Part shown: one piece after another, positions 54,868-62,662 of the stretch
Layout of the letters: every line of letters begins with the position of its first letter
Numbering within the stretch: position 1 is the first letter of the stretch
Assembly: GCA_045580265.1 (NCBI GenBank)
Contig: JAZNNM010000002.1
Coordinates: forward strand, 114,721-178,720
Source: Elusimicrobiaceae bacterium
Lineage (GTDB): Bacteria; Elusimicrobiota; Elusimicrobia; Elusimicrobiales; Elusimicrobiaceae
Length of the DNA stretch: 64,000 bases
Direction: 5' to 3'
Translations under genes and position numbers: made by a program
The notes under the pieces: generated by a model
Database searches by the model: none
Told to the model about the DNA's origin: nothing
What the model saw: only the letters and a program-made list of their open reading frames with translations

Positions 54868-57381
54868 TTATTTTTTGGGTGCCGCCACCACACTTACCAT
54901 GCGGCCCGGCACGACAATGATTTTTTTAATTTCAAAACCTTCTAACGCGCGTTGAACTTTTTCGCTGGCTAAGGCCATCTTTTCCATGTCTTCGCGGCTG
55001 GAGCCTACGGGTACCAAAATGCGGTCGCGCACTTTGCCGTTTACCTGCACCCCGATATCTTGCGTGTCATCTTGCATCAGGGATTGGTCCGCTTTAGGCC
55101 AAGTGCATTTCACCAAGAAGCCTTCATTCCCTTGTTGTTGCCATATTTCTTCGGTTAGATGGGGGGCAAACGGGTGCAAGAGTTTTAGAAATGTAGAGAA
55201 AGTTTCTTTGTTCACTTGCGGAAGTTTGCTCAGGTCGTTAAACAAAACCATTAAGGCAGAAATGGCGGTATTAAAACGGAAATTTTCAATATCGTCACCC
55301 ACTTTAGCAATGGTTTGGTTGGTTAAAATGGCACTCTTTTTGGGGTCGGCTTGGTCGGATAATTTTACATTATCACTCCAGCCGCCAACGCGTTTTAAGA
55401 AACGGGAAATACCTTCGATGCCTTTCATATCCCAAGGTTTACTGGCTTCGAACGGTCCCATAAACATTTCATACATGCGGAACGCATCCGCCCCGTATTG
55501 AGAGAGGATTTCGTCCGGATTGATGACGTTTTTCTTAGATTTGGACATCTTTTCCACCATGGGGGAAAGTTCTTCCCCGGTGGTTTTCAAGAAGGCTTTT
55601 CCGTCCTTGAAATCGATTTCTTCGTATCCGTGGTAGTTACCCATTTTGTCTCGATAAGAGAAAGCTAAAATCATGCCTTGGTGGCGCAATTTTTGGAAGG
55701 GTTCTTTGTGGGTAACGATACCCAGATCGAAAAGCACACGATGCCAAAAACGTGCATAAAGCAAGTGGAGTACCGCGTGTTCCGCTCCGCCTATATAGCA
55801 ATCTACCGGCCCGTAGGCTTTTTCGATAGCGGGATCTACCGCCGCTTGGGTATTTTTCGGGTCCATATAGCGCAGGTAATACCAGCAGGAACCGGCCCAT
55901 TGGGGCATGGTGTTGGTTTCGCGTTTGGCAGGAGCCCCGCAATGCGGACAGGTGGTGTTGACCCACTCGGTTACATTGGCAAGGGGCGATTCACCTGTGC
56001 CGGAGGGTTCAAATTTATCCACTTCGGGTAAGCGCAACGGGAGTTGATCTTCCGGAAGGGGCACAACTCCGCATTTTTCACAATGCACTACGGGAATCGG
56101 TTCTCCCCAGTAGCGTTGGCGGGCAAACACCCAATCGCGCAGTTTGTAAGTGGTTTTGGCATTTCCGCAGCCGTGTTCTTCCAGCCACTTAATCATGGCG
56201 GCTTTGGATTCTTTTACGCGAAGTCCGTTCAAAAAGCCGGAGTTAACGAGTTCTCCGTCTCCCGTGAAGGCTTCCTTTTCCACGCCTTGTTCACTTTTGA
56301 TTACTTCAATAATATCCAAACCGAATTTCTTGGCGAAGGCATAATCGCGTTCGTCGTGAGCGGGAACGGCCATGATGGCCCCGGTGCCGTAACCCATCAG
56401 TACATAGTCGGACGTCCAAACCGGAATTTTATTTCCGTTTAAGGGATTAAGCGCATAGGCTCCCGTGAACACACCGGTTTTATCTTTGTTTAAATCGCCG
56501 CGTTCCAAGTCGCTCTTTTGGGCGGCTTGGGCCTGATAGGCTTTTACAGCTTCTTTTTGTTCTGCGGTAACGATTTTATCCAAAAGCGGATGTTCCGGCG
56601 AAACAACCATATAGGTAGCACCGAATAAAGTATCGGGGCGAGTGGTAAAGACGGTTAAAGTTTCGTCGTGCCCGTCCAATTTGAACACAACATTGGCCCC
56701 GTTGGATTTACCGATCCAATTTTTTTGCATGGTCAGTGTGCTTTCGGGCCAATCCAACTCGTCCAACCCTTCCAATAATTTTTCCGCGTATTCGGTAATT
56801 TTCAAGATCCATTGACGCAAAGCCTTTCGTTCAATTTGATGGCCGCAGCGTTCACACTTGCCGTTGAAAACTTCTTCGTTGGCAAGACCCGTTTTGCAGG
56901 AAGGACACCAGTTTATCGGTACGGTAGATTCGTAAGCTAAACCTTTTTTGAAAAGTTGTAAGAAAATCCATTGAGTCCATTTGTAGTATTCGGGATCGGT
57001 GGTATCGATTTCACGGTTCCAGTCGTACGCGAGCCCGATGGACTTAATTTGACGTTTAAAATTTTCAATATTTTTGCGCGTGGTGATGCTAGGGTGAATA
57101 CCCGTAGCAATCGCGTAGTTTTCCGCGGGTAGGCCGAATGCGTCCCACCCCATGGGGTGCAGGACATCATAGCCGTTCATTAATTTATAACGGACCAAAA
57201 TGTCGGAGGCGGTGTATCCTTCGGGGTGGCCGACGTGTAAACCCGCACCCGATGGATACGGGAACATATCCAAGCAATAAAATTTTTTACCTTGGGGTAT
57301 TTTGGGGCTGGCGAAAAGATTAGCCTTTTCCCAGCGGTCTTGTTGTTTTTTATCAATCTGCGGAAAATTTTCAATACTCAT
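54868..57381 (-). CDS. leuS: Leucine--tRNA ligase
   Basis: MFPYPSGAGLHVGH, DWVFARQRYWGEPIP, GGAEHAVLHLLYARF and KMSKSKKN motifs. Confidence 0.97.
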   Translation of the reverse strand: MSIENFPQIDKKQQDRWEKANLFASPKIPQGKKFYCLDMFPYPSGAGLHVGHPEGYTASDILVRYKLMNGYDVLHPMGWDAFGLPAENYAIATGIHPSITTRKNIENFKRQIKSIGLAYDWNREIDTTDPEYYKWTQWIFLQLFKKGLAYESTVPINWCPSCKTGLANEEVFNGKCERCGHQIERKALRQWILKITEYAEKLLEGLDELDWPESTLTMQKNWIGKSNGANVVFKLDGHDETLTVFTTRPDTLFGATYMVVSPEHPLLDKIVTAEQKEAVKAYQAQAAQKSDLERGDLNKDKTGVFTGAYALNPLNGNKIPVWTSDYVLMGYGTGAIMAVPAHDERDYAFAKKFGLDIIEVIKSEQGVEKEAFTGDGELVNSGFLNGLRVKESKAAMIKWLEEHGCGNAKTTYKLRDWVFARQRYWGEPIPVVHCEKCGVVPLPEDQLPLRLPEVDKFEPSGTGESPLANVTEWVNTTCPHCGAPAKRETNTMPQWAGSCWYYLRYMDPKNTQAAVDPAIEKAYGPVDCYIGGAEHAVLHLLYARFWHRVLFDLGIVTHKEPFQKLRHQGMILAFSYRDKMGNYHGYEEIDFKDGKAFLKTTGEELSPMVEKMSKSKKNVINPDEILSQYGADAFRMYEMFMGPFEASKPWDMKGIEGISRFLKRVGGWSDNVKLSDQADPKKSAILTNQTIAKVGDDIENFRFNTAISALMVLFNDLSKLPQVNKETFSTFLKLLHPFAPHLTEEIWQQQGNEGFLVKCTWPKADQSLMQDDTQDIGVQVNGKVRDRILVPVGSSREDMEKMALASEKVQRALEGFEIKKIIVVPGRMVSVVAAPKK

Positions 57382-57462
57382 ACCCTTTTATTTTAACAAT
57401 TTTTGAACGATAAAAGGGAGGTTTTGTATTGGAGAATTTTTTGAGGGGGGTGCAACAGCCCG

Positions 57463-58350
57463 CTATCCGCGCGGATGAAACTTTTTGTGCTTGTTTTTTA
57501 AATCGCTTATATCCAGATGGGTATAGATTTGCGTAGTGGTTAGATTGGCATGCCCCAGCATTTCCTGTAAACTGCGTAAATCGGCACCGCCCGTGAGCAG
57601 GTGCGAGGCAAATGTATGACGGAAAAGATGTGGGTGGAGCGGTTGAGATATATTGGCTTTTCGGCCTAAAGCAGCCAAATCTTTCCACACGGTTACGCGG
57701 CTTACTTTTTTGCCGCGGTTATTTAAAAATACTTCGGAACCGACGTCTTTGTTAGCAAAATGTCCTTCCCGTACGGCAAGATAGGCTTTTAAGCGTTCGC
57801 ATGCTTGCGGATGAATAGGTACAAAACGTTGTTTGCCTCCTTTTCCAAAGGCGAGTACCCACCCTTCCTGTGTGTTAATGTTTTCTAAACGTAGATTAAT
57901 AAGCTCACTAACGCGAAGCCCCGCTGCGTATAAGAGTTCTACGATGGTTAAAGTTCGGATTTCATCAAATTTTTCCGCCGGATAAGATAAAAGCCGTTCC
58001 ATTTCCTCTCGTGTAAGTTGGGTGGGAATCTTTTGCGACAGGTGCGGGGATTTAACAAAACGGGTCGGGTCTTCTTTTATTTTTTCTTCAATCATTAAAA
58101 AGCGGTAAAAACATTTGATTGCTTCCATTTTACGAAATACACTGGCAGTGGCTAAATTTTCCACCACACGCAACTGATAGTTGTATTGTTCCAAAAAATC
58201 AGGAGAGGCATCTTCGGGTTTTAAATCGTTGGCGGCACAATACTCTAAGTAACTTTCCACATCGGAACCGTAGGAAAGGATCGTATTTTTGGCCAGTTGC
58301 CGCTCAAAAGATAAATGGTTGATGAAGTCTTCCAATAACAGTGTATCCAT
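57463..58350 (-). CDS. xerD: Site-specific tyrosine recombinase, XerD type
   Basis: LYAAGLRVSEL, GKGGKQRFVP, HPHLFRHTFASHLL, ADLRSLQEMLGH and TTQIYTH motifs. Confidence 0.88.
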   Translation of the reverse strand: MDTLLLEDFINHLSFERQLAKNTILSYGSDVESYLEYCAANDLKPEDASPDFLEQYNYQLRVVENLATASVFRKMEAIKCFYRFLMIEEKIKEDPTRFVKSPHLSQKIPTQLTREEMERLLSYPAEKFDEIRTLTIVELLYAAGLRVSELINLRLENINTQEGWVLAFGKGGKQRFVPIHPQACERLKAYLAVREGHFANKDVGSEVFLNNRGKKVSRVTVWKDLAALGRKANISQPLHPHLFRHTFASHLLTGGADLRSLQEMLGHANLTTTQIYTHLDISDLKNKHKKFHPRG

Positions 58351-58413
58351 AGGGGTATTATAGGAAATTTTTTTCGTCGTTGAATACTGTTTTGGGAGAA
58401 ACAGTTAATGCAC

Positions 58414-58441
58414 TTGACCGGTTTTTTTTTTTTCTTACAAT
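58414..58441 (+). promoter_or_regulatory. Sigma70-type pilin promoter with a T12 tract in the spacer
   Basis: TTGACC (58414-58419), 16-bp spacer GG-T12-CT, TACAAT (58436-58441). Confidence 0.7.
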
Positions 58442-58513
58442 AGTCGTAATCGGCAGGCTATGAAAGTTAAAAGGTCTTTTGTTTGCCGTAAATCTGTTTA
58501 TAAGGAGCTTTGT

Positions 58514-58999
58514 ATGAAAAAGGGTTTTACTTTGATAGAACTTTTGGTTGTTGTGTTAATTATTGGTATATTGTCCGCCGTCGCCATGCCACAATATACA
58601 TTGGCGGTAGAAAAGGCCCGTGTGGCGGAAGCTCGGCCCATCATAAAAAACATTGCTAATGCTAGAGAGATATATCGATTGGCAAATGGCTCTTTACCCA
58701 TTTATTTTAGTGAATTGGATATAGAAATTGCTGGCGAAGAAGATGATGATGATATGTGTAGAGTAACGAAAAATTGGAGATATTGTATCGATGTTAATAC
58801 TACAGATGCTGCTCGTAATAATGTTTCAGATGAAAATTATTATGTGATCTCTTATTATCTTCCTTCTGATCCTGATACTGCGGTGGCGGGACATTTTACA
58901 TGTTACACTCAAGGAGAATTGGGAGATAAAATCTGTCGAAGTTTGGGCGGGAAAAAGCGTGGTGGTTTGCAGAACCCTGATGAATACATTATCCCTTAA
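58514..58999 (+). CDS. Type IV pilin (PilE-like)
   Basis: MKKG|FTLIELLVVVLIIGILSAVAMPQY N-methylation motif; four Cys in the variable region; TAAGGAG RBS before ATG 58514. Confidence 0.93.
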   Translation: MKKGFTLIELLVVVLIIGILSAVAMPQYTLAVEKARVAEARPIIKNIANAREIYRLANGSLPIYFSELDIEIAGEEDDDDMCRVTKNWRYCIDVNTTDAARNNVSDENYYVISYYLPSDPDTAVAGHFTCYTQGELGDKICRSLGGKKRGGLQNPDEYIIP

Positions 59000-59001
59000 A
59001 T

Positions 59002-59032
59002 AAAAACCCCGCTCAGATGAGCGGGGTTTTTT
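59002..59032. terminator. Bidirectional intrinsic terminator
   Basis: AAAAACCCCGCTC-agat-GAGCGGGGTTTTTT. Confidence 0.9.
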
Positions 59033-59045
59033 GGTAAACTCGATT

Positions 59046-60107
59046 TTATTTTTTAGCTGTTTTTTTGGCAGGTTTTTCTTCCGTCGCTTCCCCTTCGGCG
59101 GCTTTTTTGCCGTCGTAGTGGTGGCCCAAGTATTTTACATAGAGTTTATCTTCAATTTCATCTGCCAGTTCGGGGTTATCTTTTAAGTACTGGCGGGCAT
59201 TTTCGGCACCTTGGCCCAGTTTTTCGTCCCCATAGATAAACCAGCTGCCGCTTTTTTCGATAAACCCGGCCTCCACACCTTTATCGATAATGCACGCTTC
59301 GCGGGAAATACCTTTGCCCAGGATGAGGGTAAATTCGGCTTGGCGATACGGCGGAGCTACTTTGTTTTTTGTTACTTTGGCGCGTACGCGGGTGCCGATT
59401 ACTTCGTCGCCTTTTTTCAGGTTTTCGATGCGGCGAACATCAATGCGTACGGAGGCATAAAATTTCAGTGCCAAACCGCCGGGGGTGGTTTCGGGATTGC
59501 CGAACATCACACCGATTTTTTGGCGGAGTTGGTTGATGAAAATGATGCTGGTTTTGGTTTTGTTAAGAAGGCTGGTAAGTTTACGCAAAGCTTGGCTCAT
59601 CAAGCGCGCTTGCACACCCACATGGGAGTCGCCCATTTCTCCTTCGATTTCCGCCCGCGGAACGAGTGCGGCTACGGAGTCGATAACAATTAAATCAATC
59701 GCACCGGAGCGAACCAATTTTTCAGCGATTTCCAAAGCTTGTTCACCGGAATCGGGCTGAGAAACGAGCAGTTCGTCCACATTTACCCCGAGTTGTTCGG
59801 CATAGACGGGGTCCAACGCATGTTCGGCATCAATAAAGGCTACTGTGCCTCCCATTTTTTGGGTCATGGCGGCTACATGTAAAGATAAGGTAGTTTTACC
59901 GCCGGCTTCCGGCCCGTAAATTTCAATCACGCGCCCGCGCGGCAAACCGCCCACCCCGAGAGCCAAGTCCAAAGACAAAGCTCCTGTGGGAATGGCTTCC
60001 ACTTTTTGCACACTGCCTGCGCCTAATTTGCAAATGGCTTCTTTTCCAAAGGCCTTTTCAATTTGGCCCAGCGCCAATTCCAGCGCTTTTTGTTTATTTG
60101 CGTCCAT
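59046..60107 (-). CDS. recA: Recombinase RecA
   Basis: [36 protein letters not shown] and [12 protein letters not shown] motifs; GGAGG RBS before ATG 60107. Confidence 0.98.
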
Positions 60108-60133
60108 ATTAAATTGTCCTCCAAGGGTAAAAA

Positions 60134-62662
60134 TCAAAGGGTTACGGTTTCTTTTTTATCTACCGTTTGACCGGAAAAAGTAAGTTTTCCGGCGTCTTTA
60201 TCTAAGTGTACAATAATTTGCGCTCCCGCGGGGTAGCGGTTTATTAAAATATTTTCCGCCAGCGAGTCTTCTAACTCGCGCTGTAAGGTACGTAAAAGAG
60301 GTCTCGCTCCGAATTTAACATCAAATCCTTTTTCTACCAAAAATTCTTTGGCTTCGGGAGTAAGTTGCAAAGAGAGTTCCTTTTCAGCCAATTTTTCATC
60401 CACTTCTTTTAAAGCAAGATCCAAAATTTGGCCGATATGTTGTTTAGACAGAGAGTGGAATACCACAATTTCGTCAATGCGGTTGATGAATTCCGGATTG
60501 AAGGTTTTTTTAACCTCTTCCATTACATTAATCCGCATATCTTTATATTCTTCCTCTTCGCTTTGTTTGGCGGCAAAGCCCAGTTGGCTGCCTTTATTGG
60601 TAATTTCTCGCGCGCCGACGTTGGAAGTCATAATTACCACACAGTTTTTGAAACTGACTTTGTGGCCCAAATTATCCGATAAAGATCCTTCGTCTAACAC
60701 TTGTAATAAAATGTTGTAAATATCGGGGTGAGCTTTTTCCAACTCGTCGAGAACTACCACACTGTAAGGGCGACGGCGGACGGCTTCGGTTAATTGGCCG
60801 CCTTCTTCATAACCTACATATCCGGGCGGCGCCCCGATTAAGCGAGAGACGGCAAATTTTTCCATATATTCGGACATATCTAACCGAATCATGGCATCTT
60901 CGTCTCCAAACAGGAAAGTAGCCAAACTTTTAGCAAGTTCGGTTTTTCCTACACCGGTGGGCCCTAAGAATAAGAAACCTCCGATCGGTCTATTCGGGTT
61001 GCCCAACCCCGTGCGGTTACGGCGGATCGCCTGAGAAATGGCTTTGACGGCATCATCTTGTCCGATAATTCTTTCGTGCAGTTGCTCTTCCATGTGCAGA
61101 ATTTTATCCGTTTCGCTTTGAGTTAAGCGTGTAACGGGAATTCCTGTCCATTTAGACGCCACAAGCGCAATATCTTCTTCCGTTACTTCGGGAACCTGTT
61201 TACTGCGTTCTTCTTGCCATTTTTGCTTTAAATGGTCAATGTAGGCTTTCAAACGTTCTTCGGTGTCTTTGGCTGCAGCGGCTTTTTCAAATTCTTTTTG
61301 AGACATAGCCTCTTCTTTTTCTTGCATCGCCTGATTGTACTCGGCTTGTTTTTGTTTGATTTCGGGTGGTAAAATAGCATTTTTCAAGCGAGCACGTGCG
61401 CCGGCTTCGTCAAAAAGATCGAGGGCTTTGTCCGGCATGGCGCGGTCGGTAATATAGCGGTCGGCAATGGCGGCGGCGGCACGGACGGCACCGTCTGTGT
61501 ATTTTACTTTGTGGTGCGTTTCATATTTGCCGCGGACGCCTTTCAAAATGGTAATAGTGCCTTCCACATCCGGCGGATCGGCCACCACAGGTTGAAAACG
61601 ACGTTCCAACGCGGTATCTGCTTCGATATATTTGCGGTATTCGTCAAAGGTTGTGGCACCGATGCATTGCACTTCTCCGCGAGCTAAGGCCGGTTTTAAC
61701 ATATTGGAAGCATCAATAGATCCTTCTGCCGCGCCGGCGCCGATGATAGTGTGCAGTTCATCAATAAAAATAATGGCATCTTGGGAAGCTGCTAATTCAT
61801 CAATAATGTTTTTTAAGCGTTGTTCGAATTCTCCGCGGTATTTGGTTCCGGCGATAACGGAGGCCAAATCCAACCCCAAGAGCCTTTTTCCGGAAAGAAC
61901 ATCCGAAATTTCCCCGCGAGCAATTTTTTGTGCCAGCCCTTCTACAATAGCAGTCTTACCGACTCCCGGTTCCCCAATGAGAACAGGGTTATTCTTGGTC
62001 CGGCGAGCTAAAATTTGAACAATACGTTCAATTTCTTCTTCACGGCCGATGACCGGATCTAATTTATTTTGTGCGGCCAGTAAAGTTAAATCTCGGGTAT
62101 ATTCGTCCAAAGTAGGGGTTTTGGATTTCTTTTTTAAATCAGCGGTGCGGGCATTTTTGGGAACGGAATTTAAATTGATTTCTTGCGGGAGATCCGTTAA
62201 ATCTTCTTCTAAATCTTCCGGCTCGGCATCGCCCAAAAAATTAAGAACGGTTTCGCGTACAGCATCTAAATTGAGCCCCAGATTGGCCAAAATTTTGCCG
62301 GCCATGCCTTCTTCTTCGCGAATAAGGCCCAGTAAAATGTGTTCGGTTCCGATGTGTTCGGTGCCGAGCATTTGGGATTCTTCTACCGAAAACTCCAACA
62401 CTTTTTTGGCACGCGGCGTAAACGGGATTTCACCCAGTAACATGATAGTATCGCCAATGCCTACCATTTTTTCGATTTCTTGGCGTACTTTGCGAAACGA
62501 AACCCCTAGATTGGAAAGAATTTTGTTAGAAACGGTGCCTTCTATTGCGCTGAGGCCCAAAAGAATATGCTCAGTGCCTACATAGTCGTGATTGAGGCGT
62601 TTGGCCTCTTCTTGCGCGATGAGGATAATTTTTTGCGCATTTTCGGTAAATCTTTTTGCCAT
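60134..62662 (-). CDS. clpC: ATP-dependent Clp protease ATP-binding subunit, ClpC type
   Basis: Double Clp-N domain, GEPGVGKT and GPTGVGKT Walker A motifs, short UVR-type middle domain. Confidence 0.92.

Follow-up and report, generated by a model that had tools for sequence, protein, structure and literature searches.

A pure T12 promoter spacer shared by prepilin-type genes of gut Elusimicrobiaceae, a candidate slippage-driven expression dimmer

A gene for a prepilin-type protein in this Elusimicrobiaceae genome is preceded by a promoter-like sequence in which a run of twelve T fills most of the spacer between the -35 and -10 hexamers, and we found that the same arrangement recurs throughout the genome and in related gut bacteria of two genera. 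The tract is pure, is kept at twelve T in most copies, and has slipped recurrently between closely related strains. Judged from the sequence, the pure T12 with its 16-nt spacer is the selected working (ON) state of a promoter whose activity we infer, and it is plausible, on balance somewhat probable, that slippage of the tract serves as a gene-by-gene expression dimmer or phase switch.

The window, by which we mean the whole 64-kb stretch of DNA analysed (C2:114721-178720 of genome G000), reads TTGACC-GG-T12-CT-TACAAT at positions 58414-58441, exactly as the original prediction had it. On the forward strand, the -35 hexamer TTGACC (58414..58419) is followed by a 16-nt spacer (58420..58435), made up of GG at 58420-21, the T12 homopolymer TTTTTTTTTTTT at 58422..58433, which is its slippage-prone core, and CT at 58434-35, and then by the -10 hexamer TACAAT (58436..58441). 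A consensus scan of 57400-59300 ranked this as the best promoter-like site, with 10/12 consensus matches and with TTGACA-like and TATAAT-like hexamers at a distance inside the 16-18 nt range of sigma-70-type promoters. The transcription start site is predicted near 58448. Metatranscriptome contigs that match the region start at 58478 or later, come from relatives, and cover only the family-shared leader and the N-terminal part of the gene.

The gene itself (58514..58999, forward strand) encodes a type IV pilin or pseudopilin-like protein of 161 aa, and 72 nt separate the promoter from its ATG. The start codon is likely the ATG at 58514, which stands behind the ribosome binding site AAGGAG (58502-58507, forward strand), and not that of a longer ORF beginning at 58460. 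With the predicted transcription start this would give a 5' UTR of about 66 nt (58448..58513, forward strand), a sequence common to 14 paralogs. A conserved RNA fold in this shared leader had a consensus energy of -1.06 kcal/mol and only 2 covarying pairs, and on these values the idea of a structured RNA element was rejected. The protein starts MKKG/FTLIELL, its N-terminus reading MKKG/FTLIELLVVVLIIGIL, and has the short leader, the G/F-x-x-x-E motif and the hydrophobic N-terminal helix of a class III signal. It scored 34.9 bits against TIGR02532 (prepilin N-terminal cleavage/methylation), for which the cut-off is 16.3; this match bears out the earlier placing of the tract between near-consensus hexamers of a type IV pilin-type gene. 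The specific equivalogs (GspG, PilA, ComGC and others) all scored below their cut-offs, with matches that span N-terminal residues only (at most 2-63), and the profile search gave no family match for the C-terminal part of the protein.

The pilin gene sits in the gap between xerD and recA. Immediately downstream of it, at 59002..59031, a perfect inverted repeat of 14 nt is flanked by A5 and T5 and has the form of a bidirectional intrinsic terminator, common to the pilin gene and to the convergent recA (59046-60137, reverse strand). Having a promoter and a terminator of its own, the pilin gene is therefore expected to be monocistronic. On the other side lies a divergent gene for a XerD-type tyrosine recombinase (57463..58350, reverse strand), which scored above the cut-off for NF001399 and by its profile score looks like a housekeeping XerD-type enzyme; it is probably a bystander. 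No inverted repeats flanking the promoter were found in 56500-60500, and an invertible promoter of the Xer/Vpma type was rejected on this ground and on the housekeeping-like character of the recombinase.

The T12 tract was said to be the longest homopolymer in the window, and it proved to be the only run of at least 9 nt. A lone T12 per window has no significance when compared with dinucleotide-preserving shuffles, which gave a mean of 1.38 T12 per window and at least one in 56/100 shuffles, and so the case for non-randomness rests on the composite motif and on a genome-wide census. This census covered the whole 1.43-Mb assembly of 21 contigs. A/T run lengths were bimodal, with 161 runs of 8 nt, 9 of 9, 1 of 10, 3 of 11, 18 of 12 and none longer, and, of the 22 that reached 10 nt or more, all but one stood in the same promoter context (18 T12 and 3 T11), always with T on the sense strand. 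The pattern TTGAY-N3-T(9 or more)-...-TAnAnT matched 20 sites of the genome, and a reversed-pattern control matched none. Thus, although one T12 per 64 kb is to be expected from the shuffles, a chance homopolymer or an assembly artefact is refuted by the motif counts, by the genome census and by the occurrence of the tract in independent assemblies and samples, and we give this explanation practically no weight.

The copies share the cassette TTGA(C/T)-N3-T11/12-N2-TA(C/T)A(A/G)(T/A), that is, TTGAY-N3-T11/12-N2-TAnAnT. The TTGAY of the -35 hexamer is kept in 21/21 cassettes of the genome and across two genera, and the TAnAnT of the -10 hexamer in all cassettes; the bases that flank the tract, two on each side, vary among paralogs and species, whereas the T12 is kept. 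In 15 cassettes a homologous leader of ~70 nt follows, and then MKKGFTLIELL (once MKQGFTLIELL). The original prediction had called for a look upstream of other pilin paralogs, and homopolymers of the same kind are indeed there, at about 20 others. The regions 5' of the -35 hexamer are unrelated among copies, which means that the homology starts exactly at the promoter. A second cassette subtype (GT-TATAGT, MNNNKGFTLVELL) lies at contig ends, where the assembly breaks. Because the cassette repeats break the assembly, the copy number in MAGs is probably undercounted. The MAG contig ends C8:90, C9:73954, C15:131 and C21:131 were each observed within ~150 nt of T11/T12 cassettes of the MNNNK type. 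The genome has in addition about 20 further prepilin-type genes without a tract, and decayed cassettes at C14:108117 (T7, 12-nt spacer), at C17:120183 (T5-CG-T6, with a mutated -35) and at C7:44332 (T4-G-T7).

Across the lineage, the motif was present in 90/145 genomes of the family and in 2/10 genera, at up to 89 copies per genome and with ~0 control hits. Genomes of the same genus carried up to 75 copies, and a pattern scan of the other families of the order found the motif absent. The exact-T12 form occurred at no fewer than 119 loci of GTDB species genomes; the matches listed were overwhelmingly from gut Elusimicrobiaceae/Elusimicrobiales MAGs (ruminants, reindeer, yak, mouse, human, chicken) and also included about a dozen sporadic ones in AT-rich organisms. 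T12 accounted for 18/21 copies in the present genome, 47/54 in G007, 14/21 in G017 and, among the matches listed, ~60/72 in G009, and its share in sister species was ~82% of copies, the others being T9-T11 or T13-T15. The flanks are species-specific, CCG..CA/CT-TACAAT here, GCG/TTG..GA-TAAATT in G007 and TTG..GG-TACAAT in G009. A G directly follows the tract in many species and turns its end into an extended -10 'TGn'.

A prepilin N-terminus was encoded downstream at 108/130 assessable Elusimicrobia loci, and at the remaining 22 the gene product was mostly a Cys-rich protein with a Sec signal. Since the T12 promoter is found ahead of these genes also, the promoter class appears to mark a wider set of surface and secretome genes. 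Some classes in sister species have practically no leader, the ATG coming 7 nt downstream of the -10 hexamer. Examples of leaderless pilin genes, of genes for non-pilin secreted proteins, or of both were seen at L016 1501-1540 and at L039, L045, L057, L087, L097, L105 and L139.

Variation between strains was followed in contigs assembled from public runs, with the unique flank on the xerD side as the anchor, and 13 genomes were informative at the locus (the MAG and 12 metagenome samples). The tract was T12 in the MAG, X1, X9 and X14, at least T12 in X3, and T11 in X2, X12 and X13. Sample X4 kept the T12 and had lost one G at 58420, which leaves a spacer of 15 nt. All these length differences lie within flanks that are at least 99% identical, and four of the nine intact alleles were off-length. 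T11 was seen on the reference haplotype (X12, X13) as well as on the 58314G haplotype (X2), and tracts of 12 T or more were likewise seen on both (X9 and X14; X3). These results demonstrate that slippage has occurred at least twice in near-identical DNA. Tract length at the locus is thus not invariant, and on this point the original prediction of a slipping tract holds, with T11 in three samples and in two haplotype backgrounds.

The other four samples (X6, X7, X8 and X10) carried a 349-bp deletion (58422..58770, forward strand) that removes the tract, the -10 hexamer, the 5' UTR and the N-terminal half of the pilin gene; their contigs reach 58421 and go on with AAATTGGAGATATTG..., which is the window sequence from 58771 onward. 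As this deletion is found in four independent gut metagenomes, the pilin paralog of the window must be dispensable in the population, and its decay may account for part of the variation, the 5' half of the gene being deleted in 4/13 informative genomes. The deleted segment extends from exactly the first T of the tract to a run of A5 within the pilin gene; what is left is a 3' remnant that has no promoter. Strain differences were also seen at the cassette C4:93841 (L150 342-353), which has T12 in X1 and, in X7, T15 joined to the other cassette subtype (CTTACAATAGTGCTAATCGG). This indicates that strains differ by replacement of the pilin cassette in this slot, the tract marking the junction. At other cassettes the strain contigs end at repeats.

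As a control we used an A10 run (C4:106006-106015; L150 12507-12516), the only A/T run of at least 10 nt outside the pilin cassettes. This A10/T10 is located directly upstream of the ribosome binding site of a dapA-like gene (identified by eye only), and it measured 9, 9, 11 and 11 nt in four strains. Being off the MAG length in 4/4 strains, it indicates that length polymorphism is generic to long runs and is not by itself evidence for an adaptive switch. Absence of mismatch repair was rejected as the cause of slippage, given that MutS and MutL are both present in the genome.

Transcription from sigma-70 promoters depends on the length of the spacer. In the mechanism that we favour, the T12 would be the spacer core of a lineage-specific sigma-70-type promoter cassette, TTGAY-N3-T12-N2-TAnAnT, which would drive monocistronic prepilin-type genes, and less often genes for other secreted surface proteins, in gut Elusimicrobiaceae. 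Replication slippage in so long a homopolymer would repeatedly shift the tract by one or more bases, and each slip, by changing the spacer to 15 nt (or to 17 or more), may lower or alter the transcription of that single gene. Each of the ~21 cassettes would then be a potential independent and reversible mutational dimmer or phase switch, and at any time most of them would be expected at T12 and a minority (about 15-20%) shifted.

The conserved length is central to this interpretation. Slippage is frequent, and yet ~82% of copies stand at T12 in paralogs, in different species and in both genera, next to flanks that have themselves changed; this calls for selection on the T12 length. An OFF length would not be conserved in this way, and T12 with a 16-nt spacer is therefore best read as the working state. 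Interrupted tracts would keep the spacing and stop the slippage; they are rare among T-rich spacers upstream of pilin genes (2 interrupted versus 89 pure), which suggests that purity itself is maintained. Two explanations of the kept purity remain: perhaps mutability is useful, as in a contingency locus, or perhaps the geometry of a pure A-tract is needed for structural or recognition purposes. In favour of the dimmer, about 15-20% of copies are off-length in consensus assemblies with their genes intact, and the architecture matches the vlp paradigm of mycoplasmas. Against it, classical contingency families have paralogs of differing length and not so sharp a mode as the T12 here, and neither the paralogs of this genome nor those of sister species showed the pattern of differing lengths with a subset ON. 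In many sister species, the extended -10 'TGn' could also blunt the dependence on spacer length.

The geometric explanation holds that the pure T12, as a rigid and overtwisted A-tract, is only a structural or recognition element, needed for promoter function or for the co-regulation of surface proteins, and that slippage has no part in switching, being a mildly deleterious side effect that is tolerated. We regard this as possible and rather unlikely. One route would be phasing, in that the overtwist of an A-tract would presumably give the 16-nt T12 spacer a phase closer to that of an ordinary spacer of 17 nt; another would be recognition of the A-tract geometry by a sigma factor or regulator. 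Length, purity and strand of the T12 are all kept from paralog to paralog, between species and in two genera, however much the flanks change, and the same promoter stands ahead of Sec-signal secreted proteins in a regulon-like manner. The control A10 slips just as readily, and in the vpma system there is precedent for a promoter T-tract without phase variation (PMC2268961). However, if only spacing or AT-richness mattered, interrupted and stable variants should accumulate, and their rarity is difficult to reconcile with this; about 15-20% of copies in consensus assemblies and 4/9 intact alleles at the locus are off-length with intact genes, and no candidate regulator has been identified.

The original prediction placed the optimum at a 17-nt spacer and proposed that slippage may select which pilin paralog is expressed. 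In its full form, T12 (16 nt) would be weak or OFF and T13 (17 nt) ON, and slippage would pick one or a few expressed pilins among many silent ones; we consider this very unlikely. The preference for 17 nt stands in so far as the spacers of non-tract promoter-like sites of the genome peak there (7, 10 and 7 sites at 16, 17 and 18 nt), and some T13 copies do exist in a sister species. But 16-nt spacers are normally functional in sigma-70 promoters, and there is no T13 among the 21 copies of the present genome, where the three off-length tracts are all T11. An OFF length could hardly have stayed at just 12 T in ~82% of copies from one species to the next, and with 18/21 paralogs sharing exactly T12 in this genome neither the notion of T12 as a suboptimal or OFF state nor that of paralog selection by slippage is supported. 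It is even harder to believe that the tract is mainly the 5' edge of a recombination cassette, by which pilin bodies are swapped or deleted via the shared promoter, UTR and leader modules, with no role in expression. The 349-bp deletion does begin exactly at the first T, the X7 slot at C4:93841 does pass from T15 into a different cassette subtype, and MAG contigs do break at cassettes. Nevertheless, an edge of homology is expected at the promoter anyway, contig ends at repeats are partly assembly effects, and the conservation of length and purity would be left unexplained.

The closest known system is that of vlp in Mycoplasma hyorhinis, along with maa2 in M. arthritidis and vmm in M. mycoides, where a homopolymer or short repeat also lies between -35 and -10. 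Each member of the vlp surface-protein family has a conserved cassette of promoter, 5' UTR and signal peptide before a divergent body, and a conserved cassette of promoter, leader and N-terminus across a multigene surface-protein family is what we find here. Spacer tracts switch vlp, maa2 and vmm ON and OFF, which gives the dimmer a precedent (PMC2268961). The present system differs from vlp in belonging to another phylum, in having prepilin-type proteins and not lipoproteins, in its poly-T tract with a 16-nt spacer where vlp has poly-A, in its near-uniform T12 across paralogs and species where vlp paralogs differ in length, and in its copy number of up to ~90; moreover, its switching is a prediction. 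What sets it apart is thus its place in another phylum, the kind of protein encoded, the great number of copies and a tract of almost the same length throughout, and our literature searches turned up no report of this promoter class in Elusimicrobia.

Other systems share single features of the arrangement. In Bordetella pertussis, the paralogous fimbrial-subunit genes fim2 and fim3 each have a promoter homopolymer, a C-stretch, that sets expression. The resemblance is in the placing of a promoter homopolymer on each of several paralogous fimbrial-subunit genes, but the Bordetella tract is poly-C, lies between the site of the activator BvgA and the -10, and concerns only a few genes. Transcription of porA (poly-G) and opc (poly-C) in Neisseria meningitidis is graded by how long the homopolymer within or next to the promoter spacer is; the position is similar, but these are single genes with no family-wide cassette, and the Neisseria tract lengths vary widely among isolates. 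In sabA of Helicobacter pylori, the length of a poly-T promoter tract tunes the promoter gradually, as a 'rheostat', and not in a strict ON/OFF manner; unlike the tract described here, it is near or upstream of the -35 and not in the spacer, and it serves a single adhesin gene. The vpma genes of Mycoplasma agalactiae resemble our locus in having poly-T immediately upstream of the -10, in a promoter of variable surface proteins, with a Xer-type recombinase gene adjoining (PMC2268961). There, the promoter T-tract was shown not to phase-vary, and switching is by Xer1-mediated inversion (PMC2268961). In contrast, the promoter in the window has no flanking inverted repeats, and each gene has a promoter of its own.

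If the tracts do switch, gut symbionts with small genomes, from a phylum that has hardly been studied, would diversify a pilin-like coat as mycoplasmas and pathogens do; the scale, at tens of loci per genome, would be unusual, and so would the signature of one strongly preferred length. A more far-reaching proposal, which we put forward only tentatively and with some doubt, is contingency on the scale of the genome, where in genomes of ~1.4-1.7 Mb some 20-90 pure-T12 promoters would slip independently while selection keeps both the T12 ON length and the purity. Each cell lineage would then differ in which prepilin-type and secreted surface proteins it displays, or in their dosage, and the phylum would gain its first promoter-spacer contingency family, one larger than any other known. 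If, instead, the pure T12 is structural, it would represent a new promoter architecture and a marker of a surface-protein regulon. On either reading the motif is a precise and searchable marker of variable surface genes in these bacteria, whose MAG assemblies break at the cassettes and may misreport them.

Two further observations concern individual cassettes of the genome. A sixteenth leader-type copy, at C9:22155, precedes a pilin pseudogene (ATG AAG AAA GGG TTT ACT TTT TAG; L152 about 256-400), and this dead gene still has its T12, with -35 and -10 intact. An extra motif, GAAAAAG-N8-10-(T)CTCGTCGA(G/C)AG(C), is absent from the copy in the window and abuts the -35 hexamer at C17:83103, C17:61420, C20:34066, C19:14954 and C9:29067, where it may serve as an activator site, act like an UP element or form one end of a longer repeat.
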